From the IMG/VR virus record IMGVR_UViG_2531839663_000008, positions 1 to 42,768 of that record: DNA of 42,768 nt; one strand, written 5' to 3'. This document shows positions 1 through 42,021 of the stretch, piece by piece (position 1 is the stretch's first letter; each line of letters begins with the position of its first letter). The notes under the pieces were generated by a model. It did no database searches and had not been told where the DNA came from. It was given only the letters and a program-made list of their open reading frames with translations. The stretch is from a virus (taxonomy: Duplodnaviria; Heunggongvirae; Uroviricota; Caudoviricetes). A program made the translations under genes and the position numbers.

Positions 1-1194
1 ATGATCACCGACACAAAGCTCAGGAAGGCGCTCGGCAAGAAAAGAGATGATATCGAGATTATTTCTGATTCGCACGGGCTCAACGCCAGAATCAGCCAGG
101 CCGGAAAAATATCATTTTTCTATCGGTATCGCTGGGCCGGTAAAGCGGTAAAACTCAATGTTGGTGATTATCCTGCAATGAGTATCACCCAGGCAAGAGA
201 GCGTCGCCAACAATTCAGAAACTGGTTAACTGAGGGACTGGATCCGCGAGAGCAGGTGAAGCTGGATAAGCAGACCCGACAGGAAGCGATGTCCGTTGCC
301 GAAGCGTTCAATTACTGGATTGAAAGGCACTGTATCGCTAACGGGCTAGTTAAAGTCGATTACTATCGCCAGGTGTTTGAGAAACATATCGCCGAACCGA
401 TGAAGAATGTCAAAGTCGATAACACAGCGAAAATGCACTGGATCAACGTCTTCGATTCTATAGAAAGCAGGGTGATGGCTCATTACATGCTTTCGCTGTG
501 CAAACGGGCGTTTAGGTTCTGCGTTAACAGAAGTGTGATCGCCTCAAACCCACTCGAGGGATTACTGCCATCTGATGTCGGGCAAAAGCCTAAAAAGAGA
601 ACTCGCAGGATGGACGATGACGATCTGCGCAAAATCTATCAGTGGTTGAAAAGCCATATGTCGATAGAGTCCGTTTTCCTGGTGAAATTTATTATGCTTA
701 CCGGATGCCGTACGGCTGAGATTCGACTTAGTGAGAGATCATGGTTTCGATTGGATGATAATGAGTGGGTCGTGCCTGCGGGCAGTTATAAAACTCGGGT
801 ACATATTAGAAGGGGACTCTCAGACGCCGCCGTTAACCTGGTCAGAAATCACCTCAAGAAAATAAACACCAATCACCTGGTGACTTCACAACGTAAAATT
901 GATGGCGGGATCAAAGATTCGCCCGTTCATTCACCTGTGGCATCCAATTACGCCCGTTCTATTTGGAATGGAATAGGTATGGCAGAGTGGTCGCTTCATG
1001 ATATGAGGCGGACGATAGCCACAAATCTCTCTGAGTTAGGTTGCCCGCCGCACGTAATTGAAAAGCTGCTCGGGCATCAGATGGTGGGGGTTATGGCGCA
1101 TTACAACCTTCATGACTATATCGATGATCAGAAACACTGGCTCCGCGTTTGGCAGAGCCATCTTGAAGAGATCATCGGAGAGCCCTTCAGTTAA
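1..1194 (+). CDS. int: Tyrosine-type site-specific integrase
   Basis: 397-aa ORF; C-terminal region shows recombinase-type motifs (HDMRRT, LLGHQ, AHY); convergent AlpA/Xis-like gene immediately downstream. Confidence 0.85.
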
Positions 1195-1433
1195 TTTATC
1201 TTCTTTTTATCCTCCCACTCTTTGATTGACTCAGAGCGCCAGCGGTTAGGGTTGCCGGGCCAGTCAGGGGGTGGGAACGAGCATACGAAGCCCCGAGGCA
1301 TTGTGTCTGCACTTTGCCATGACCAAAGGGTTTTGCGTGAAATTTTGTAGCGACTGGTCAGGTCTGACGTTACCAAAATATCATCCATAGCTCTCTCCAG
1401 TTGCCCGTTCGGGCCATTCAAAATCTTTTTCAA
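1191..1433 (-). CDS. AlpA/Xis-like small DNA-binding protein (putative excisionase/regulator)
   Basis: 80 aa; ISRKTLWSW ... FPPP ... W ... IKEW pattern resembles AlpA-family HTH proteins; overlaps the int stop by 4 nt. Confidence 0.55.
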
Positions 1434-1675
1434 CCAACCTGCCCGGGCAGGGAGCGGAGACGGCGCATGCCGGTCATCGCTGTGGCCACGTAGCTCGCCT
1501 TTCGGTTCACCACCTCCACCCAGACTTTCACGCCTTCAACCTTCACCGTATAAGTCTCTTTCATCTTGCTTCGCCCATAGTCGCCATATGTTTGCAAGTG
1601 AGCCGCCAGCGCAACATCGCAAGCGCGGCGACCAATAGGTGATTGCTTACTGCGATTAATCAGCTTCATCATCAC
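1430..1675 (-). CDS. Hypothetical phage protein
   Basis: 81-aa ORF, 4-nt overlaps with both neighbours in a co-directional operon. Confidence 0.4.
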   Translation of the reverse strand: MMMKLINRSKQSPIGRRACDVALAAHLQTYGDYGRSKMKETYTVKVEGVKVWVEVVNRKASYVATAMTGMRRLRSLPGQVG

Positions 1676-2556
1676 TGCACTCCCAAAGTGGCTACGACAT
1701 CACTCGCTGTTTCGCGGGTACTGCCTTTGCTGGATATAGCCCGGCGAGCACTGACGCGGTGCAGCGTGAAGCCGTGCTGTTCGTAAAGTTCAATTACGCG
1801 CGGAGCGGTAGAATTGCTGATCACCACTTTTGCCCCCCGCTGGTGGGCTGCCACACAGCTTTCCGTAAGTTCTACCTGGCTATCCCATGAGAACCCACCA
1901 GCCGCATAGTTAGTGAAACCAGCGGTGCCGGGCAGCGGCTCATAAGGCGGATCGCAGTAAACGACGTCACCATCACCTGCCAGCGCGAGCGTGCGCCTGA
2001 AGCCTGCATTCATGAATACGCATGCGTGAGCCTTCCGCTTAAATGCCCTGATCTCTTCTTCCGGGAAATATGGCGCTTTATATTTCCCAAAGCCGACGTT
2101 AAAAAAACCGTCCAGGTTATAACGGATCAGCCCGTTGAAGCAGTGCCGGTTGAGGTAAAGGAACGCTGCTGCGCGCTCGACCGCATCCAGCCGCTGCGCG
2201 TTGAATGCTTCACGAATTACCGTGTAGTTTTCGGCATCATTCAGATGCCTGAATGCCTTCATTGCCTCATAGATCACCGAGTCGGGGACCACCGCCAGCA
2301 TCTGATACAGGTTAATCAGGTCAGCGTTGACGTCAGCCAGAAGAAAGCGTTCGTGCTTGTCTGAGTTAAGGAACACCGAGCCGCCACCCACAAAAGGCTC
2401 AATAAGGCGTTTACCTGCGGGGATCAAACGATCCAGTTCCGGCAGCAGCGAATATTTGCCGCCAGCCCATTTAAGGAACGGGCGCTGCCAGCTTCGCAGC
2501 GCCGGTTCTTCTATGGGCATCGCCGCAGCTCCACTGCAAACAGAGCCGTATCTCAT
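1672..2556 (-). CDS. dam: DNA adenine methyltransferase, Dam family (GATC-type N6-adenine MTase)
   Basis: 294 aa; N-terminal KWAGGK and central DPPY motif typical of Dam/alpha-class N6-adenine MTases. Confidence 0.8.
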   Translation of the reverse strand: MRYGSVCSGAAAMPIEEPALRSWQRPFLKWAGGKYSLLPELDRLIPAGKRLIEPFVGGGSVFLNSDKHERFLLADVNADLINLYQMLAVVPDSVIYEAMKAFRHLNDAENYTVIREAFNAQRLDAVERAAAFLYLNRHCFNGLIRYNLDGFFNVGFGKYKAPYFPEEEIRAFKRKAHACVFMNAGFRRTLALAGDGDVVYCDPPYEPLPGTAGFTNYAAGGFSWDSQVELTESCVAAHQRGAKVVISNSTAPRVIELYEQHGFTLHRVSARRAISSKGSTRETASDVVATLGVQ

Positions 2557-3617
2557 GCTGCGACCTCAAAGCTCTTTGCCGTAATAGCTTGGATTAGTCT
2601 CACCGAAGCAGCTTTTTGTGAAGCAACGCTGGCAATAACCGTCGCTCTATCTTTTTCAGTGCTGGCGCAGACACCGGACCAGGATGAAATGAGGAAGAAA
2701 TTCTCCAACTCACTCATAGTGGAATTATTTACTAACTCCTCAATCATCTGCACAATGATGTGTGCAGGGCGATGCCGTAGTAGTTCCTGCATTGCGTAGC
2801 CAAACGCATTGATCATCACCGCGTGGAACTGGATGTAATCCCGCTTATATTCAGCAGGCGTACAACCATGCCTAATTCCCTCGATGGCTGTTAGCTTGAG
2901 CCATGCCTCCCAAATGTCATAGATGTCACTAGTAGCAAGCTCATCCCCATTGACAGAGAATTTTGCAGTTGCATCACTCAGGGGTTTGAAGCTAATCCAG
3001 AGATCGCTTTTCGCCGGAACCACGTTGTGTTCAAAGTCTGTTATTTCTGAGAACACGGCATGGGATGACAAAAACGAAACCATATCTTGAGCAATTTTAT
3101 CCCTACCGTTATAGGCCATATTGATGGCCGCTGATGGCTTCGATACGTTGTTGTTGATGTCGGAAAAGAACTGCTGGCGCGTTTTGAGCGGCAGTTGGTG
3201 TGTCAGCATCATTGGGATGTGAATAGGCTCTCCGTAAGTGCGGCAGAACTCCGCAATGCCTGCGGCGCGATGCTGACCGTCAAACAGTTTAATCTCCGCA
3301 TCCATTGGGAATCGCGCAACACCCACATTCGTATTGCCAAACTCTTCGAACTCAATGAGTGAGTCGCAGTTTCCAACCAGCGGCGGGATGATGAACGGCT
3401 CTTTTTTCTCGTAAGCTGTTCGCAGATACTCATAAAACTTCTTCGCACGTGCTGGATTGAGTTCTCGCTGAGAACGCTCAAGCGTATTGCCGTGGTTATC
3501 TGATGCCAGAACGCGAGTTAGCGCGCGCGCTGGGACTGTCATCATCAACACAACCGTATTTCCCTGTAAGCCTCTTGATGCCGGGAATTCAAAGAAATAG
3601 TCACCAATTTTGCTCAT
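2553..3617 (-). CDS. DGQHR-motif protein (DndB-like, ParB/Srx superfamily)
   Basis: Literal FDGQHRAAG motif in the N-terminal third; start placed at second ATG, which has a GAGGA RBS about 9 nt upstream; stop overlaps the dam start by 4 nt. Confidence 0.6.
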   Translation of the reverse strand: MSKIGDYFFEFPASRGLQGNTVVLMMTVPARALTRVLASDNHGNTLERSQRELNPARAKKFYEYLRTAYEKKEPFIIPPLVGNCDSLIEFEEFGNTNVGVARFPMDAEIKLFDGQHRAAGIAEFCRTYGEPIHIPMMLTHQLPLKTRQQFFSDINNNVSKPSAAINMAYNGRDKIAQDMVSFLSSHAVFSEITDFEHNVVPAKSDLWISFKPLSDATAKFSVNGDELATSDIYDIWEAWLKLTAIEGIRHGCTPAEYKRDYIQFHAVMINAFGYAMQELLRHRPAHIIVQMIEELVNNSTMSELENFFLISSWSGVCASTEKDRATVIASVASQKAASVRLIQAITAKSFEVAA

Positions 3618-3694
3618 GCTTCCGTCCTCTAACATTTAATTCTTCAACATGGGATGGCGCACCGCGCCAACCCTGATGTCGTCGTGAGCGTGAG

Positions 3695-4123
3695 TCATAG
3701 GATGGACTCCATTTCGTCGATGTAGAGGCCCTGAGCAATCAGGCGGCTACGGCGGGCGGCACGGGCTATGCACTCCTGCCGTCTACCTTCCTGCGATTGC
3801 TCAATGGCGCGCCGGGTGAACAGGCGCGATTTGCCCTGCGGCGTCACAACCTTCGGCTTCGTGACCAGGTCGAAAGTCCGGTCGCAGATGCCGTCCCCGT
3901 TGATCCACTTTTCCGACTCAACGATCTGCGCTATCTGTCCGGAGCCGCGGGTAATACCGTTGGCTACCCGGTTAAACTCGATGAGCGTTACGCCAAACTT
4001 CTCAGCGATTTCGCTGCCGGTTACCGGGCGGCCGCGCGTCTGAATCATCCAGATAACGCGCTCACGAAGGCCGGAGAATTGCCCGGTGCGCCCTGGCCTG
4101 CGGTAAAATGGTGTGCGTTTCAT
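3695..4123 (-). CDS. Hypothetical phage protein (basic, possible HTH)
   Basis: 142-aa ORF in the leftward operon; 4-nt overlap with the downstream exonuclease gene. Confidence 0.45.
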   Translation of the reverse strand: MKRTPFYRRPGRTGQFSGLRERVIWMIQTRGRPVTGSEIAEKFGVTLIEFNRVANGITRGSGQIAQIVESEKWINGDGICDRTFDLVTKPKVVTPQGKSRLFTRRAIEQSQEGRRQECIARAARRSRLIAQGLYIDEMESIL

Positions 4124-4737
4124 GCTGCACGCTCTGTGATTTTCTGAATTTCCGATTCCAGATCTGCAAGGAAGCTCTTAACCTCAGATTCGATTTCGCG
4201 CGCCAGCTCTTCATCGAAATGAATCCGCTTCTTGAAATAGGCGAGGTCAGGCGGCAGGCGATCATCGAAACTAACGAAATCACACCATTTCCGCCCGGTG
4301 CACATCATCTGTGCATGCATTTGCAGCATGTACTGGCGCTTTGGCTCACCAGTTTTCAGCGTTTCAAGATGGGTCCAGGTGTTGGGGCATTTGATTTCGA
4401 TAAGCCCGTCGTCGTTGACAAGTCCGTCCGGGCTGGCTGCGAATCCGGGTATGGTTGGGTGATCGATGAGCCCAACTTCAGTGATTGCCGCATTGAACTC
4501 ATTCAGCGCGTACATTTCGCGTGCCACTGGCTCAAGTTCAGTGCCGCGCATCATCGCGGCATTCGAAAACCCTTCCTCCAGCTTCCCGGTCAGCCGTTGG
4601 CAAATCAGCTCGGCCATGTAGTTCTGGCGGCTGGTGGAGTAGCCCGACTTAGTCCGGGCCATGACATCAGCCAGGCGACTGGCTGTGACCTTGCCGCAGC
4701 GCGCAGCAAACCATTCAGGGGTGCGTTGCTCTATCAT
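4120..4737 (-). CDS. YqaJ-like viral recombination exonuclease
   Basis: 205 aa; N-terminal RTPEWFAAR and PD-(D/E)xK-type GLIEIKCP motif; adjacent to and overlapping recT. Confidence 0.8.
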   Translation of the reverse strand: MIEQRTPEWFAARCGKVTASRLADVMARTKSGYSTSRQNYMAELICQRLTGKLEEGFSNAAMMRGTELEPVAREMYALNEFNAAITEVGLIDHPTIPGFAASPDGLVNDDGLIEIKCPNTWTHLETLKTGEPKRQYMLQMHAQMMCTGRKWCDFVSFDDRLPPDLAYFKKRIHFDEELAREIESEVKSFLADLESEIQKITERAA

Positions 4738-5495
4738 TCAGCCTCCGTCTCTGCGACATTGACAGGTTCGGCGTTGTCGACAGCAAGACTCATGTCATAC
4801 ATGCGTCGTTTCTCAACTGCGCCGATCACCTGTTTCTCTTCGGCGCTCAGCGCCACCCAGAACTCCTGATACTTAACGGTTCCAAGGCGCGCGGCGGACT
4901 CACCTTTTGCGATCAGTTCCGGGCGGCGGCTATCTGATTCATGGCCCGCATGAACCTCTGCCGTTGTTCCTTCAATTACTCGCTCTGCCTCGTCCTGGTC
5001 GAAGATGCCAGCGAAACCAAAGGCCAGACGCGCGCACTGGATCAGCGTCTTGTGGCGAAGCATGCGGGTAGGGTGGGACTGCCATGGCTGAGTGTTGCGT
5101 TTGCACTCTCCCATGTACTCGGTGACGATGGTCGGGTGCTTACGGTCTTTGCGGTAAATCTTGCAGGTACACGCGCCTTCCTCCTTGTCGTAAGAGAACT
5201 CCATGCCGTCAAACTGAGGATGCTCGTTGATAATGCGAGCCCATCCATCAACGCCGACGACCGGGACAATCCCGCCTTTATCTGGGAATGCGTAAATCTC
5301 TTTGGTCCATGGGTTCAGGCCGTACTGGTTGGCGACGATCAACAGGGCTGTAAACTGCTCGTCCGTGACGTTGCCACTTTTGAACGCTGTATTCTTCAGC
5401 GTATTCATCAGGTCTGTACCGGCATCCATGCCGAGGCGTGCGGCCAGTTTCCCGGCCATGGTGGAAAGTGCAGTACTCATTGTTAAATCCCTCAA
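4734..5495 (-). CDS. recT: RecT-family single-strand annealing protein
   Basis: 253 aa; RecT-like sequence, paired with the YqaJ exonuclease as in Rac/lambdoid recombination modules. Confidence 0.8.
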   Translation of the reverse strand: MRDLTMSTALSTMAGKLAARLGMDAGTDLMNTLKNTAFKSGNVTDEQFTALLIVANQYGLNPWTKEIYAFPDKGGIVPVVGVDGWARIINEHPQFDGMEFSYDKEEGACTCKIYRKDRKHPTIVTEYMGECKRNTQPWQSHPTRMLRHKTLIQCARLAFGFAGIFDQDEAERVIEGTTAEVHAGHESDSRRPELIAKGESAARLGTVKYQEFWVALSAEEKQVIGAVEKRRMYDMSLAVDNAEPVNVAETEAE

Positions 5496-5498
5496 AAA

Positions 5499-5783
5499 TT
5501 AAAACGGGCAGCCGGTACGGTGTTCCCAGTCGTATTCCGCCTGGGCGTAAGCAACTACCGAAATGAAATCGTTGTAGGCCTCGCCAGCTTTATCGCTGCG
5601 AAGCCCTTCGTATGGGCTGGAGTCTATCGGGATCGTGAAGTGGAAGAGGCCGGACGGCTCTTTAGGCATCATGTCGATGATTTTCTGCGCCCGGTCGTCG
5701 ATCCACTTCTCTTTCTCGTCGGTGATCTGCTGCTCAGCCCAGCGCCGATCTTCGATGCGGTCGTAAGTGAGGTATGCGTTCAT
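5499..5783 (-). CDS. Hypothetical phage protein
   Basis: 94-aa ORF co-directional in the early-left operon. Confidence 0.45.
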   Translation of the reverse strand: MNAYLTYDRIEDRRWAEQQITDEKEKWIDDRAQKIIDMMPKEPSGLFHFTIPIDSSPYEGLRSDKAGEAYNDFISVVAYAQAEYDWEHRTGCPF

Positions 5784-5790
5784 GGTTGCC

Positions 5791-6762
5791 TCAGTAATGA
5801 ATTTTCGCGCAGGGGATCAGGTCATCTTTCAGAGCGGTAAGCACTTCGATAGCCTGCTCGCGGGTTAAGCTGGTTTGGCTGGTGAGCGCGTTAACGATGT
5901 TGGTGCCGACCGTCTTGCGGTGCTTAACGTCAGCTTCACGCTTTGCCTGCTCATCGGCGAGGCGCTTCTCTTCGGCCAGGCGGGCATCTTCGGCCTGTTT
6001 GGCCTTCAGGCGCTCGGCTTCAACCGCCGCGGCTTTTTCGCGTTCCGCCCGGGCTTCCGCTTCCTGCTTCTCGCGAGCTGCACGCTGTTCCGCTTCGACG
6101 CGCTGGCGCTCCGCCAGTTCAGCGCGGGCTTTCTCTTCGGCTTCACGGCGCGCTGCGGCTTCAATCTCCGCTTTGTGCTTCGCTTCGGCATCGCGGCGGG
6201 CTTGTTCTGCCGCTTCCTGTTTCAGCCGCTCATCACGTTCACGCTGAGCCTGTTCCGCCAGACGGCGCTGCTCTTCGCGGTCACGGTCAAAATCCTTGTT
6301 CATCAGTAGAGCCATTTCGTGGTCCGCTTCGAACTTGGCAGCCAGCTCCTGATCGAACCTGATGTTCATCTCCAGCGCTTCGGCGTGCATCGCGTTCATG
6401 GCTTCTTCAGCCTTAATGCGTTCCTGCTCGGCTTCCCATTCGGTGAGTGGGCGGCGGGTCGCATCGCGCAGCTCGTCGCAGGCATCAACGAATCGCTTAA
6501 TTTCGGCCTCAGCCGGACGCACAGCCTCTTTCAGGCGCTTCAGGTACTCACGGCCCGGCTTTTCGATTGCCGTCTTGCTGCGGGACACCTGCGCTGCCAG
6601 AGAGGCAACACGGTCACGGCCTTTCTTCGTGGACAGGTCCGACACTTCGTTTACAGCCTGGCGGATTTGCTCAAGGTACGCGTCAAGGCCGCCCGCTACG
6701 TAAAGCACTGGGGCCTGTTCCGGCTTGATTTCGATGACAGTTAAGTCCGTTACTTCGCTCAT
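5791..6762 (-). CDS. Coiled-coil protein with low-complexity A/E/R/K repeat region
   Basis: Start placed at internal ATG preceded by AGGAGA RBS; long run of EAxRxAEEK-type repeats gives shadow ORFs in other frames. Confidence 0.55.
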   Translation of the reverse strand: MSEVTDLTVIEIKPEQAPVLYVAGGLDAYLEQIRQAVNEVSDLSTKKGRDRVASLAAQVSRSKTAIEKPGREYLKRLKEAVRPAEAEIKRFVDACDELRDATRRPLTEWEAEQERIKAEEAMNAMHAEALEMNIRFDQELAAKFEADHEMALLMNKDFDRDREEQRRLAEQAQRERDERLKQEAAEQARRDAEAKHKAEIEAAARREAEEKARAELAERQRVEAEQRAAREKQEAEARAEREKAAAVEAERLKAKQAEDARLAEEKRLADEQAKREADVKHRKTVGTNIVNALTSQTSLTREQAIEVLTALKDDLIPCAKIHY

Positions 6763-6832
6763 GGTTTCTCCTGAAATTTGGATGTGCAGATCCCGCCCGC
6801 GTAATGCCAGGCCGAACGGTTGAATAGGGTGG

Positions 6833-7042
6833 TTAGTGCTGGATAGGGTTGCCGTGACCGTCAAGAAGGACGTCAATCACGCAGTCACTGAGTCGGATTA
6901 TTTCTGCGTCAGTGTGCAGGTATACCCATTTGCGCTCCTGAATGACTGCTGAGACGCGATATGTGCGGCCTTCATGCAATGCCATCATGCCGGGCGTGAC
7001 GCACTGGCGAATGAGCGGGGTGGTGCCGTAGTGGTTGATCAT
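6833..7042 (-). CDS. Hypothetical small protein
   Basis: 69-aa ORF; 4-nt overlap with the upstream gene. Confidence 0.4.
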   Translation of the reverse strand: MINHYGTTPLIRQCVTPGMMALHEGRTYRVSAVIQERKWVYLHTDAEIIRLSDCVIDVLLDGHGNPIQH

Positions 7043-7197
7043 GCCTTCACCTCAACCTGTTCCAGGAGGCCAGCGATATTCATCTGTTGGCGGTTCATCG
7101 TCAGCTTTTCACGCGGGTTAGATACCGACGTCAGCTGCCACTCGTTATCGTTGAGCTTTTTGGCGGTGTACTGCTTGCCGTTGTGGGTGACTGTCAT
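7039..7197 (-). CDS. Hypothetical small protein
   Basis: Start placed at internal ATG (MTVTHNGK...) with AAGGTGG RBS upstream; ORF-track start 7239 is probably an over-extension. Confidence 0.4.
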   Translation of the reverse strand: MTVTHNGKQYTAKKLNDNEWQLTSVSNPREKLTMNRQQMNIAGLLEQVEVKA

Positions 7198-7198
7198 C

Positions 7199-7408
7199 TC
7201 ACACCACCTTGAATAAGAACCAGCCCATACCGCACACAATCAGGCCCACAATGGTTATTGCGGAAGACATGCGTACATGGTCAATGGCTAGTTTTGAAAG
7301 TGGCTGGCGATGTTCTTTTTTCGTCAGCGAGTTGATTGCTATGCCGAGCAGAAACGTCCCGACAAACCATAATGCGTATATCTTTAAGCCCAACTCCAAA
7401 TCACTCAT
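7199..7408 (-). CDS. Small membrane protein (two predicted TM helices)
   Basis: 69 aa with two hydrophobic stretches (IYALWFVGTFLLGIAI and AITIVGLIVCGMGWFLF). Confidence 0.45.
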   Translation of the reverse strand: MSDLELGLKIYALWFVGTFLLGIAINSLTKKEHRQPLSKLAIDHVRMSSAITIVGLIVCGMGWFLFKVV

Positions 7409-7542
7409 AAATCCTCTTGGCCTTATCGCGGCGAACGGAACGGTTAATACAAGACTTCAACGCATTTATTCAGTGTTTCAATGGGCGGTGGATGGCCGCC
7501 GGTTTTCATAACTAAGCCGCCTCGGTGAAGCGACTGAGGTAT

Positions 7543-7564
7543 GAAAAAGCCCTCCGGAGAGGGC
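7543..7564 (-). terminator. Intrinsic terminator for leftward transcription
   Basis: GCCCTC-CGGA-GAGGGC hairpin; on the minus-strand RNA it is followed by a U-run (plus-strand AAAAA at 7544-7548). Confidence 0.5.
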
Positions 7565-7575
7565 TATGTGTTTCG

Positions 7576-7716
7576 CTTAATCATTGGGTAAGCCAGAGCA
7601 ATTACACCTGCCACTAATACCCCGTCAGCCAGCATCGACATCAACTTCCCGGTGAAATCGACAGCAATCACCAGGAAGAGGAGGACGCCGATAATCAACC
7701 AGCGCAATTTATCCAT
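7576..7716 (-). CDS. Possible micro-membrane peptide (about 46 aa), absent from ORF track
   Basis: ATG at 7716 abuts the TerB-like stop; translation begins MDKLRWLIIGVLLFLVIAVDF (hydrophobic helix); exact frame and stop not verified. Confidence 0.3.
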
Positions 7717-8141
7717 CAGATATAAGCGTCGAGTGATAACTGAAGAGCCTGAGCGATTTTCTTCAGCTGTTTTTCTTCGTCTTCGCCGATGCCGTCGTTA
7801 TCGGCTACGTCAAGGCACAGGCAGAGCACATCAACTGCGTCTGGAGTACCTGCCACATCTGCAAGTTCGCGCATTGCCTGGGCATTAGCAGAGCGAGGGG
7901 ACGCTTCGTACTGTGCGCGAATGTTGCTGCTCATGCTGGCGATCTCACCTGCGAAAGCAGAGAACGCTGGTTTTGCCTGAATGGTTTTCTCCAGCGTTGC
8001 AATTTCTGACGCATCACAAGTACCGTCTGCATAAGCGATCGAGTAACAGCCCCACACCGTTGCTTCAACTGCGTCGCGGTTTTCCATCTTCTTCACTTCG
8101 ACGATCGCCTTGCGTGCTTTTTTCTTAAACAGTCCGAACAT
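7716..8141 (-). CDS. TerB-like domain protein
   Basis: 141 aa with two YADG/DNDG ... DE.E.K-type repeats resembling TerB; first gene downstream of the leftward operator/promoter. Confidence 0.5.
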   Translation of the reverse strand: MFGLFKKKARKAIVEVKKMENRDAVEATVWGCYSIAYADGTCDASEIATLEKTIQAKPAFSAFAGEIASMSSNIRAQYEASPRSANAQAMRELADVAGTPDAVDVLCLCLDVADNDGIGEDEEKQLKKIAQALQLSLDAYI

Positions 8142-8365
8142 TTGACTACCCTCTTGGTTTAAGCCATCAACTTGATGGCGACATTTGACTTACCGTCAGC
8201 CCCTCGTAAAGAGCTGCTGGTAAATCGTGTTGCCATAATTGCCGCTCCTCCTGAGCCCGCCTATGGTCCGACGCATGGTTTACTGTCGCGCCGTTCGACT
8301 GACCGAATCTCCACTTCGCTGCTGGCTAACTTCGCTCAGCTGTCGATGTTTCGTTTCGATGGGTA

Positions 8366-8443
8366 AATTTAGCGTGATGCTAAATTATGCGCAATAGCAA
8401 AATGCTAAATTGTTGAATGGTTTTATTTAGCGTATTGATTAAT
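8366..8443. promoter_or_regulatory. Left operator array (OL-like) and leftward early promoter region
   Basis: Three sites: ATTTAGCGTGATGCTAAAT (8366-8384, perfect dyad), ATAGCAAAATGCTAAAT (8394-8410), ATTTAGCGTATTGATTAAT (8425-8443). Confidence 0.6.
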
Positions 8444-8525
8444 AAGCGATTAAAAATTTACAGCGAAGGAATTCGGGACGTAAAAAAGCCCGCGCGATGG
8501 CGGGCTTGAGGGGTTTTGCGTGAGG

Positions 8526-9203
8526 TTATGGGATGTTTAGTATTTTGGCATCAACCACAACGCCGATGATTTTGCAGTTTCCATTAATTTCTAGCATTGG
8601 ATATGCGGGGTTAAGGGGCTTTAGGAAGCGTCTGCCGGCATCGATTACAAGCTTCTTAAAGGTCGCTTCGTTATCGCCTTCTAGCTTCGCGACAACCAGC
8701 TTTCCGTTGCGCGGCTCGACTTCAGGATCAACAAGTATCGCTGCTCCCTCGGGTATGCTCAGTCCAGCCGGGGAGGTCATAGAATCCCCTTTAACGTCCA
8801 GCCAGAATGAATCTTCTGAGCAGTCAACAGTCGTGTCATACCAGCGATCTATCGCTCTTCGGTGATAAGGTTCTACAGCTTCCATCCATTGCCCCGCGCT
8901 TACCCAGCTGATTACAGGATAACTTCCTTTTGTCTCGTTCAGTCCTCGAAATGCAACGTTCGAAGGTTCTTCACTGGCGTGTAAAACATCCATCCAGCCA
9001 AAAGGCAGATCAAGCGCAGTTTCAATTTTGCGAGCCATCTTATCGCCGATATTGCGATGAGGGTTTGGTCCCAGTAGCTGGCTAAGCGCAGCCGGACTTG
9101 TCTCGATGAGCTCGGCAAACTGCGCTTTGGTCATTCCAGACTCGTGCTGACGCTTCTCGTACAGCGCTTCCAGGTTGGCTTTTCTGATTTCTTTATTTTC
9201 CAT
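8526..9203 (-). CDS. cI: CI-like prophage repressor (HTH domain plus S24 LexA-like peptidase domain)
   Basis: Start placed at MENKEIRK...; C-terminal half has S24-type layout with a GDSM motif; flanked by operator arrays and divergent from cro-like gene. Confidence 0.8.
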   Translation of the reverse strand: MENKEIRKANLEALYEKRQHESGMTKAQFAELIETSPAALSQLLGPNPHRNIGDKMARKIETALDLPFGWMDVLHASEEPSNVAFRGLNETKGSYPVISWVSAGQWMEAVEPYHRRAIDRWYDTTVDCSEDSFWLDVKGDSMTSPAGLSIPEGAAILVDPEVEPRNGKLVVAKLEGDNEATFKKLVIDAGRRFLKPLNPAYPMLEINGNCKIIGVVVDAKILNIP

Positions 9204-39996: not shown

Positions 39997-40589
39997 TGAA
40001 ACCTGTATTTGATGAAAATGGGCTGGCTAGAGTGCCGGGTGATATGCGTTGTTTTTATTATAATGCAGTAACGTATGAATATACCGGCTGGTCTGATGAA
40101 TATATTAATACTGGCGTAAGTATGCCCGCCTGTTCCACTGGTATTGACCCGGGCGAAAACATTCCGGGAAAAGTGGCAGTATTTACAGGTAAGGGATGGA
40201 GCCATGAAGAGGACCATCGCAATGAGACTGTTTACTCAATCGAAAATGGCGCAGCTGTTACAGTGGATTATATCGGTGACATCAAAAACGGTTATGTCAC
40301 GCTTTCACCGTTAACGCCATATGATAAATGGGATGGTGAGAAATGGGTGACAGATTCTGAGGCACAACACGGTGCCGCAGTAGAAGCAGCAGAAGCACAG
40401 CGCCAGTCGCTGATTGATACTGCAATGGCTTCCATCAGTCTGATTCAACTGAAATTGCAGGCCGGACGTAAACTGACGCAGGCAGAAACCACCCGACTTA
40501 ACGCTGTGCTGGATTACATTGACGCGGTGACGGCAACAGATACCAGCACCGCGCCGGATGTCATCTGGCCTGAACTGCCGGAGGCGTAG
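39996..40589 (+). CDS. Tail fibre assembly protein (variant 1)
   Basis: 197 aa; C-terminal TSTAPDVIWPELP shared with the convergent paralogue. Confidence 0.7.
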   Translation: MKPVFDENGLARVPGDMRCFYYNAVTYEYTGWSDEYINTGVSMPACSTGIDPGENIPGKVAVFTGKGWSHEEDHRNETVYSIENGAAVTVDYIGDIKNGYVTLSPLTPYDKWDGEKWVTDSEAQHGAAVEAAEAQRQSLIDTAMASISLIQLKLQAGRKLTQAETTRLNAVLDYIDAVTATDTSTAPDVIWPELPEA

Positions 40590-41013
40590 GCCATTCAATA
40601 TCTGGCGCACTGGAGGAATCAACCAGTTCCAGTGCGTCCAGATAATCCAGCCACAAATTATATTGCGCCAGTTCATCATCTTTCAGACGACCAATAGCGG
40701 CTTTACCGGGCCATTGCTTACTGTTCATGTATTCGTTGGCCTGGTTAATTAGTAACTGTCTTTCTGATTCAGTAATTTCAATAAGCTCTTCATGCGTGGG
40801 TGGAGGAATATCTGCCCACGCAGGCAGCCCATCATCTCCGGCAATACGGATTTTTCCTTGTGGCGGTTCAGCCATAAACTCACTGATAATATTCTGATTT
40901 ACTTCCTTAGCGTCTGATAAATCCCATCCCTCTGATTTATATTTATCAATCATATCCACAGGAAAAAAAGCATTATACCTTGCGCTATAAACATATTCGT
41001 TCATATAAATCAC
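40561..41013 (-). CDS. Tail fibre assembly protein (variant 2)
   Basis: 150 aa; C-terminal SSSAPDIEWPTPP; 3' ends of the two assembly genes overlap convergently. Confidence 0.7.
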   Translation of the reverse strand: MIYMNEYVYSARYNAFFPVDMIDKYKSEGWDLSDAKEVNQNIISEFMAEPPQGKIRIAGDDGLPAWADIPPPTHEELIEITESERQLLINQANEYMNSKQWPGKAAIGRLKDDELAQYNLWLDYLDALELVDSSSAPDIEWPTPPAVQAR

Positions 41014-41024
41014 CCTGAATAAAA

Positions 41025-41471
41025 TTACTCACCAACAGCCCACCAACTGTAATTCATCGATACCGTGTCGCTGGTTGATGACGTTCTGTAAGCAGAATTA
41101 AAACCGGTTAACGTTGGGCCTTCTGCCGTCATCACGAACCCTCGCCCAGCGCCTAAAGGCGCACCGCCATCACCAGAATGAGTAAGCATGGCGCAGTCCG
41201 CTTTTTTGGGGAAAGGGATGCTGAATGTAATTCTCATTGTTTGCGTCGATAATGTCGGCGTAACCGCACCACGACCATATTGCAGGATTTTCCCGTTGGG
41301 TAATTTCATCCATCCATCACCACTGGCAAAAGAGGCCATGTCCGGTATCTGATTTTCCCCTGTCCCAACATTTCGTTTTGCCGCTTCTCCCAAACCAACC
41401 TTTTTAAAACCCTCAAGTATCTGGCGATCTCTCGCCGTTTCTCCTGTTTTCACAACAGGAGAAATACCCAT
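41025..41471 (-). CDS. Alternative tail-fibre C-terminal segment, expressed only after inversion
   Basis: 148-aa ORF whose 5' end coincides with the right crossover site; the ATG in the ORF track is probably not a real start. Confidence 0.55.
   Translation of the reverse strand: MGISPVVKTGETARDRQILEGFKKVGLGEAAKRNVGTGENQIPDMASFASGDGWMKLPNGKILQYGRGAVTPTLSTQTMRITFSIPFPKKADCAMLTHSGDGGAPLGAGRGFVMTAEGPTLTGFNSAYRTSSTSDTVSMNYSWWAVGE
41435..41467. repeat. Right inversion crossover site (candidate)
   Basis: CCGTTTCTCCTGTTTTCACAACAGGAGAAATAC, internally palindromic (TTCTCCTGT / ACAGGAGAA), immediately upstream of the invertase ATG. Confidence 0.5.
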
Positions 41472-42021
41472 GATTTACGGCTATGCCCGAGTATCAACAA
41501 ACCACCAGGACACCGAACTTCAGCGAATCGCGCTCGAATCAGCAGGGTGCGAACACATAATGGAAGAGCATGCCAGCGGTAGAAAATCAAACCGCCCCGT
41601 ACTGAAGCGCCTAATTACGGCGATGCATACGGGAGATGAGTTGGTGGTCTGGAAGCTGGACAGGATTGGGCGTAACGTTTTACATGCGCTGCTGATGTTT
41701 CAGCAACTACAGGAGAAGGGCATTAACTTCCGAAGTATTACCGATGGTGTTGATCTCAAAACAGCCAGTGGTCGCTATAACTTTCGCAACATCCTCTCTG
41801 CGGCACAATACGAATCCGACCTTAATAGTGAGCGCACTTTGGCGGGTTTAGCTGTTGCCAGGGCAAAAGGTCGTGTTGGTGGCAGAAGACCAAAGTTTAC
41901 TGACGATCAGTGGAAGGAAATTGGTGAACTGATAGCTGCCGGAGAATCCAGACAGATTATTGCCAGCAGGTATAATGTTGGCATGTCCACGCTGTATAAG
42001 AAGTTTCCCGCTGGATGCTAG
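41470..42021 (+). CDS. Serine recombinase, DNA invertase (Hin/Gin/Cin/Pin family)
   Basis: 183 aa; N-terminal IYGYARVSTNHQDTELQ with catalytic Ser, central resolvase domain, C-terminal HTH. Confidence 0.9.
   Translation: MIYGYARVSTNHQDTELQRIALESAGCEHIMEEHASGRKSNRPVLKRLITAMHTGDELVVWKLDRIGRNVLHALLMFQQLQEKGINFRSITDGVDLKTASGRYNFRNILSAAQYESDLNSERTLAGLAVARAKGRVGGRRPKFTDDQWKEIGELIAAGESRQIIASRYNVGMSTLYKKFPAGC

Follow-up and report, generated by a model that had tools for sequence, protein, structure and literature searches.

A DGQHR-domain gene of the DndB family as an accessory cassette upstream of a resident orphan dam gene in a phi80-like phage, and its loose linkage to phage DNA methylases

The 42,768-nucleotide (nt) DNA of IMG/VR record IMGVR_UViG_2531839663_000008 (the whole stretch analysed, hereafter the window) is a phi80-like temperate phage genome, in which int is followed by a long early operon transcribed leftward from the minus strand. 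In the distal part of this operon, a gene for a protein with a DGQHR motif lies directly upstream of dam, which encodes a Dam-family adenine methylase without a cognate restriction enzyme. Here, we report that the DGQHR gene is a mobile accessory cassette placed next to a resident orphan dam, that the methylases do not depend on it and that it also occurs where no methylase is nearby, and that across homologous loci DGQHR genes are placed upstream of orphan methylases of many families non-randomly but loosely.

The DGQHR gene is an optional insert beside resident methylases

A 3-kb query running from xis to exo matched 203 E. coli genomes, 202 of which carry Dam without the DGQHR gene, and DNA of the DGQHR gene was found in only one of 5,426 complete E. 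coli genomes. A first reading of this DNA from the sequence alone (the sequence-only reading) had named a lack of co-occurrence in related prophages as evidence against its proposal, and among the closest relatives the two genes indeed do not occur together as a rule. In the E. coli genomes that lack the DGQHR gene, as in phi80, dam is preceded by a 159-nt DUF1317 gene (present in full at locus L002). Alignment of the window with 88COLEC and phi80 reveals that the body of DUF1317 has been replaced by the DGQHR gene, which is rejoined to dam at a conserved GCAGCATGA junction. What is left of DUF1317 is a remnant whose ATG overlaps the stop codon of the phrog_1680 gene and whose own stop codon abuts an alternative ATG of the DGQHR gene at 3635; the remnant marks the left recombination boundary of the cassette.

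A similar picture emerges from the epsilon15-like phages, all of which keep an MT-A70 methylase, unrelated to Dam, next to int. A DGQHR gene with 75% identity to ours occurs there as an occasional insert, found only in the SPN1S subgroup (6 of the 41 epsilon15-like records) and located between DUF1317 and the methylase. The phages with this insert are Salmonella phages, and the insertion slot is the same as in the window. Since both Dam and MT-A70 are conserved without the DGQHR gene, the methylases are the residents and the DGQHR gene is the optional insert, and the pair in the window is a recent juxtaposition.

The sole complete E. coli genome with the DGQHR gene is that of 23AR0998, whose prophage (L205, NZ_CM132249 2677176-2690423) is a remnant of about 13 kb that runs from int to the tail fibre; the 42.7-kb window is therefore a different, more complete copy. 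The left arm of the window is 99.9% identical to this remnant, which lies next to kch/yciY, and RefSeq names the two products there “DNA adenine methylase” and “DGQHR domain-containing protein.” Another IMG/VR contig (UViG_2922317101_000007) is 100% identical over the DGQHR gene.

Identity of the two proteins

The sequence-only reading had described two minus-strand open reading frames (ORFs), one for a Dam-type methylase and one for a ParB-fold protein of the DGQHR/DndB superfamily. Both ORFs and their motifs are real, and profile searches returned significant matches to both families. The Dam protein contains the motifs FLKWAGGKY, FVGGGS, and CDPPY and matches Pfam MethyltransfD12 (PF02086, 5e-58) and the Dam family model TIGR00571 (266.8 bits, cutoff 114.85). 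Its score against the E. coli Dam equivalog (274.8) stays below the cutoff of 441, which makes it a member of the family and not the host orthologue. The dam DNA is 96.6 to 99% identical to the damL locus of phi80-like prophages, and the best PADLOC model for the protein is “orphan methyltransferase” (1e-93). No restriction endonuclease is found next to dam, whose neighbors are the DGQHR gene and a DUF4060 gene, so that the gene content is not that of a type II restriction-modification system. Thus, the window Dam is the phi80-lineage damL gene, intact, orphan, and encoded in the early operon, and no other methylase was detected in the window. From its family, it is predicted to modify GATC, and it presumably shields the phage DNA from restriction, following the general logic of orphan methylases (PMC5778455). 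GATC sites are not avoided in the window (161 observed versus 166 expected).

The DGQHR ORF (2553-3635) contains the string LFDGQHRAAG. Translation probably starts at the ATG at 3617, 8 nt behind a GAGGA, and the resulting product matches RefSeq WP_001373762.1. The protein scores above the curated cutoffs of both Pfam DndB (PF14072; 1.5e-44, 152.9 bits, cutoff 29.1, residues 17 to 292) and the DGQHR domain model TIGR03187 (210.8 bits, cutoff 58.85). Together with the DGQHR motif and an N-terminal fold of the ParB/Srx type, this places it in the DGQHR-domain/Pfam DndB superfamily. Among phage families, it belongs to phrog_7901, which has no assigned function (1e-220). The family is small, with 511 representative clusters among 1.84 billion, and RSQR, DGQHR, FxDIN, and DxExN motifs are invariant among homologs down to 30% identity. 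The residues of the nucleoside triphosphate (NTP) motif, that is, the GxxR and DGQxR P-motif of the ParB-CTPase fold, are conserved, which suggests a putative NTPase activity; a DndB-like protein has been found to bind ATP and GTP (PMC12704722).

The C-terminal 200 amino acids, in which the sequence-only reading had recognized no motif, lie mostly within the DndB family model, which extends to residue 292. This domain is helical and can be aligned with homologs down to 30% identity; it showed no nuclease motif and no convincing structural match, and a PDB sequence search with the family profile gave no matches. A HEPN domain has been proposed for DndB (PMC3632139). The DGQHR protein does have an Rx5H string at residues 265 to 271, but a HEPN assignment is unsupported, as the arginine is not conserved in close homologs, the histidine is lost in Vibrio homologs, and no structural match was obtained.

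Gene junctions and transcription

The 4-nt overlap between the DGQHR gene and dam had been read as translational coupling. The overlap itself is present, but the early-left operon has eight junctions, five of which overlap in this way; such overlaps are the norm there and do not mark a functional unit. The GCAGCATGA string at the junction (Ala-Ala-stop overlapping ATG) recurs at several junctions of this operon, on the minus strand of the window at 2556-2564 between the DGQHR gene and dam and at 4123-4131 between exo and its downstream neighbor, and again in phi80 (L003) between DUF1317 and dam. By its recurrence, this linker looks like a conserved module-exchange junction. Many neighboring proteins in related loci also end in AA.

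A consensus scan of the minus strand from 1100 to 9000 detected no sigma-70-like promoter, and the pair has no promoter-like site of its own, which makes it simply part of the delayed-early leftward transcript. Such a placement would fit better with a function at the time of infection or induction than with a defence expressed in the lysogen.

Methylase linkage across homologous loci

To describe the neighborhood more widely, we surveyed 145 loci from IMG/VR, GTDB genomes, and GenBank phages, whose DGQHR proteins are 28 to 100% identical to the query. Clustering of the proteins at 90% identity gave 51 lineages, which are not fully independent phylogenetically. Beyond representatives checked with Pfam, methylases were detected by phmmer with nine seed methylases, and the counts are lower bounds. 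A methylase is encoded one to four genes downstream of the DGQHR gene in 19 of the 51 lineages and one to four genes upstream in two (binomial p = 2e-4, with the positional base rate uncontrolled). The distribution of offsets peaks at the next downstream gene (11 lineages), falls to 6, 4, and 4 at the following positions, and then to about 1. Nine methylase families or subfamilies, including C5 methylases, occur near DGQHR genes. The linkage is also seen for distant homologs (30 to 40% identity) in prophages of Vibrio, Shewanella, and Rheinheimera, and those of Alkalimonas follow the same trend. The pairing therefore does recur, and with a direction, as far as the downstream position is concerned. 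Co-inheritance as an obligate two-gene module was not found, while the proximity is non-random.

The looseness of the linkage becomes apparent among close relatives. In 84 such loci, the next downstream gene is spread over 22 unrelated clusters and is a methylase in 14, drawn from six families: Dam D12 (two subtypes), MT-A70, N6_N4, T1-type Dam (PF05869), and C5. In 17 further close loci, a gene for a 154-amino-acid protein with a triple helix-turn-helix (HTH) lies between the DGQHR gene and the methylase, and the methylase slot behind it swaps between PF05869, MT-A70, and N6_N4 while the DGQHR proteins stay at least 90% identical. This layout was noted in L037, L041, L047-L049, L060, L063-L065, L067, and L069, and likewise in L074, L081, L087, L092, and L094 (about 6070-6535 per locus). 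The triple-HTH protein belongs to phrog_323, “transcriptional regulator,” with weak matches to GcrA and sigma-70 region 4.

The Klebsiella-type loci, 33 in number, form the largest group without a nearby methylase. Their DGQHR gene is directly preceded by a ParB-like phrog_1033 gene, so that two different ParB-fold proteins are encoded in tandem. The phrog_1033 proteins (261 to 283 amino acids, with a DGRQR or DGHHR motif) are found in L005, L006, L035, L036, and 22 further loci (about 3090-3880), as well as in L018, L019, and L031. Complete Klebsiella phages of this group carry Dam 5 to 6 kb away, in the divergent early operon, and when flanks of 10 kb are considered, a methylase is present in 58 of 77 loci.

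Other contexts of DGQHR homologs

A clade of about 40% identity (427 to 460 amino acids, still phrog_7901; L102-L110, with the homolog at about 5000-6300) is found beside genes for PsiA, an ArdB/KlcA-type antirestriction protein, RadC, a PLD nuclease, DUF1281, DUF4942, and DUF1380. This gene content is of the type found in the leading region of conjugative elements, and regions of this kind have been characterized as anti-defence islands in which orphan methylases abound (bioRxiv 10.1101/2023.02.15.528439). The DGQHR gene of lytic Vibrio phages has ligase, RdgC, and exonuclease genes as its neighbors, and a methylase is encoded about 4 kb from it.

Several single loci deserve mention. In Pseudoalteromonas phage KB12-38 (L089, 941-5559), a PAPS-reductase-like gene, a C5 DNA methylase gene, two small ORFs, a DndB-like gene, and a second gene annotated “sulfate reductase” form a cluster that may represent a phage-borne DNA modification other than plain methylation. 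Rheinheimera pacifica (L116) carries tandem DGQHR-family paralogs (3846-5201 and 5301-6326). In L147, L149, and L153 (about 6198-8209), the DGQHR gene is followed by genes for a 464-amino-acid DUF3560 protein and a 205-amino-acid protein resembling small S-adenosylmethionine-dependent methyltransferases; the latter matches PF05175 exactly at the cutoff, and its identity as a DNA methylase is uncertain.

Layout of the window

The features of the early-left operon are collected in Table 1. The phrog_1680 gene is kept in relatives with as well as without the DGQHR gene. By ORF size and order, the rest of the window consists of phage replication, lysis, and morphogenesis ORFs. Upstream of gamL, at the position of the phi80 agt/Mog “anti-toxin for Gam,” lies a 361-codon ORF for a Glu/Ala/Arg-rich protein (5791-6876, minus strand), which is intact in the window and annotated as frameshifted in E. 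coli 23AR0998. A gene of the TerB family (tellurite-resistance-like; 7716-8141, minus strand) is found within the prophage close to the immunity region, between terminator-like hairpins at 7548-7565 and 8486-8507. Finally, the segment at 40561-42021, with two minus-strand ORFs resembling tail fibre assembly genes followed by a plus-strand serine recombinase ORF (MIYGYARVSTNHQ...), resembles the invertible pinL tail fibre segment of phi80.

Table 1. Features at the left end of the window and in its early-left operon
Feature	Position	Strand	Description and basis
int	1-1194	+	Integration module; ORF list, profiles, RefSeq annotation
xis	1191-1433	-	Integration module, distal operon end
DUF4060 gene	1430-1675	-	Distal operon end, downstream of dam
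dam	1672-2556	-	Dam-family (D12 class) N6-adenine DNA methyltransferase, 294 amino acids, intact, orphan
DGQHR gene	2553-3617	-	DndB-family, ParB/Srx-fold protein, 354 amino acids (likely start); 360 amino acids from the in-frame ATG at 3635
Stop/start overlap of DGQHR gene and dam	2553-2556	-	4 nt, ATGA within GCAGCATGA
DUF1317 remnant	3636-3698	-	20 codons and stop; alignment with DGQHR-less 88COLEC and phi80
phrog_1680 gene	3695-4123	-	142 amino acids; weak HTH_11 match, labelled “regulator” in some records
exo	4120-4737	-	Recombination module; RefSeq annotation of identical segment and ORF list
bet/RecT	4734-5495	-	Recombination module; RefSeq annotation of identical segment and ORF list
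gamL	5499-5783	-	Recombination module; RefSeq annotation of identical segment and ORF list

Discussion

Our preferred explanation, which we put forward tentatively, is that the DGQHR protein is an NTP-dependent DNA-binding modulator of phage DNA modification that acts through DNA. The gene would be co-transcribed with dam and the recombination genes upon infection or induction, and its product would serve as an NTP-dependent switch on DNA within the modification and anti-restriction toolkit, most likely promoting, timing, or limiting methylation by any orphan methylase present in the phage. The coupling would run through the DNA and not through a specific protein contact, and the protein would be an optional add-on to methylases that clearly work without it. 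This model draws on three analogies detailed below, namely the control of dndCDE by DndB, the need of DpdA for DpdB without a stable complex, and the prophage fusions of ParB-fold proteins with methylases. A wider proposal, about which we are more doubtful, is that standalone DndB-family ParB-fold NTPases (phrog_7901 and relatives) constitute an undescribed class of early accessory factors, which would boost, time, or target co-resident methylases or otherwise shield entering or replicating DNA.

Several observations speak against a modulator of methylation. No methylase lies within four genes in 32 of the 51 lineages (~63%), which limits the recurrence of the pairing described above, and one subgroup mostly has none within 10 kb. 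Methylase families swap freely beside DGQHR proteins that are at least 90% identical, which indicates that the DGQHR protein does not co-evolve with the methylase. Sister phages keep the methylase without the DGQHR gene, so that the protein is not needed for methylation, and a look for methylase fusions among the 511 representative clusters found that the ten long members tested carry PF14072 alone. Moreover, genes of both types are commonly carried in the short accessory stretch that separates the recombination genes from xis/int, and position alone may account for part of their adjacency.

It is tempting to speculate that the protein is instead an independent early anti-defence or establishment factor, mechanistically unrelated to methylation, which would counter a host system on its own, for instance by interfering with Dnd, Ssp, Dpd, or GmrSD-type ParB-fold or NTP-dependent defences, or by acting on nucleotides or incoming DNA. 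Its nearness to orphan methylases would then result only from the clustering of anti-restriction cargo in early-expressed regions. Such a factor would account for the swapping of methylase families and the many loci without a methylase, and it agrees with the company of PsiA and ArdB/KlcA-type genes in the leading-region context of the 40%-identical clade and with the early operon location without a promoter-like site. However, the argument is one of guilt by association without a target, it does not by itself account for the near-constant downstream position of the methylase, most often as the very next gene, and PADLOC and Pfam match the protein to DndB alone and to no known anti-defence family. 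We regard this explanation as rather unlikely in absolute terms and as nearly as likely as the modulator. Alternatively, the adjacency could be coincidental, with a DGQHR protein engaged in DNA metabolism (recombination, replication, or partition-like handling) and shuffled as a module at conserved junctions. The window pair did arise by insertion beside a pre-existing Dam, generic points of exchange in the operon are provided by its 4-nt ATGA junctions and the recurring GCAGCATGA, the next downstream gene of close loci belongs to many unrelated clusters, and frequent neighbors include RecT/exo, RdgC, SSB, phrog_1033 (directly upstream in 26 to 29 loci), and, in lytic Vibrio phages, DNA ligase. 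Coincidence does not readily explain the directional excess of methylases and its decay with distance, which extend from Escherichia to Vibrio and Rheinheimera and over nine methylase families or subfamilies, nor the insertion in the same slot before unrelated methylases in two unrelated phage lineages; we consider it unlikely.

The least supported explanation is the one offered by the sequence-only reading, a modification-plus-sensor or compact defence, exclusion, or addiction module in which the DGQHR protein would act as an effector (a nuclease or NTPase) that senses the modification and attacks DNA lacking or carrying the mark, with the methylase protecting the phage's own DNA. A toxic effector would require a nearby methylase, which is absent in most lineages, and the two genes are not co-inherited. 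The partner methylases make different marks, N6-methyladenine in several contexts and 5-methylcytosine, so that there is no single mark to sense. Near-identical DGQHR proteins lie beside three unrelated methylase families and distant ones beside C5 methylases, which makes a specific protein partner or a sensor of one methyl mark unlikely. The HEPN-like Rx5H motif is not conserved, no nuclease domain is present, no promoter-like site for lysogenic expression was found, and PADLOC detects no system beyond the DndB-like match. A module of this kind is therefore improbable.

To our knowledge, DndB-type proteins have been known solely from phosphorothioation and 7-deazaguanine systems. In the present loci, a protein of this type is seen as a free-moving cassette in temperate phages and conjugative leading regions, preferentially before orphan methylases of many families. 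Should the link be functional, ParB-fold NTPases could be general helpers or governors of DNA modification, which would suggest a function for the prophage ParB-methylase fusions and add a testable factor to the anti-restriction repertoire of phages and plasmids. If the wider proposal of a standalone class holds, the logic of a ParB-like NTPase acting with a DNA-modifying enzyme would reach ordinary methylation and provide a new anti-restriction mechanism. If the link is not functional, the window pair is an ordinary modular juxtaposition that should not be catalogued as a defence system. The DGQHR protein is thus a candidate for experiment and not an established system.

Comparison with known systems

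Among the papers covered by our literature search, none dealt with DGQHR proteins that stand alone in phages or with a link between them and methylases. One of the closest known relatives is DndB, which shares with the DGQHR protein PF14072, the DGQHR motif, a similar size, and the two-domain layout. Like the DGQHR gene, dndB lies upstream of DNA-modifying enzymes with which it is co-transcribed, in this case dndCDE, which DndB regulates (PMC4507180); dndB opens its operon, and its product thereby governs phosphorothioation. Nevertheless, the protein is not DndB proper, as it reaches 104.7 bits against a cutoff of 328 for the equivalog TIGR03233, and the operon contains no dndC, dndD, or dndE. 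Linkage to dndCDE or dndA/iscS was likewise not found, the operon neighbors being Dam, DUF4060, xis, phrog_1680, exo, and bet; the sequence-only reading had correctly stated that dnd and dpd partners are missing from the operon. Unlike DndB, the DGQHR protein has a methylase as its partner, if any, and is encoded in an early operon and borne by phages or conjugative elements. DndB is further characterized by ATP-modulated binding to an operator in its own promoter, whereas the DGQHR gene has no promoter-like site upstream.

DpdB, the ParB-like ATPase of the 7-deazaguanine Dpd system, carries a DGQQR motif, works with DpdA and DpdC, and is required for modification by the base-exchange enzyme DpdA without forming a stable complex with it (PMC10164549). 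We rejected it as an assignment here, since the motif is DGQHR and not DGQQR, neither an NCBIfam scan (E <= 0.1) nor Pfam returned a DpdB family, and no TGT-like gene is nearby. The two also differ in that DpdB is needed for modification, whereas the phage methylases clearly work without the DGQHR protein. Type IV systems of the GmrSD/BrxU/SspE kind were rejected in the absence of DUF262 or DUF1524 Pfam matches and of a His-Me/HNH nuclease domain, and canonical ParB of ParABS systems because there is no ParBc Pfam match, the PHROG ParB-like match is marginal (E 0.002), and the operon has no parA.

Among the phage and plasmid orphan methylases, such as phi80 damL, epsilon15 MT-A70, T1-type Dam, and those like M.EcoGII, the window Dam is unremarkable. 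A comparable arrangement is seen in fusions between a ParB-CTPase fold and a DNA methylase, which are enriched in prophages and for which an anti-defence role has been suggested (PMC12704722). In both cases, an orphan DNA methylase is brought together with a ParB-fold module that binds NTP. Unlike in the fusions, the DGQHR and methylase genes are separate, the ParB-fold protein belongs to the DndB subfamily and not to ParBc, and the linkage is loose (0 to 3 genes apart, and often absent). Taken together, the gene family is already recognized and named by its domain, and its logic has relatives in Dnd, in Dpd, and in the ParB-methylase fusions.

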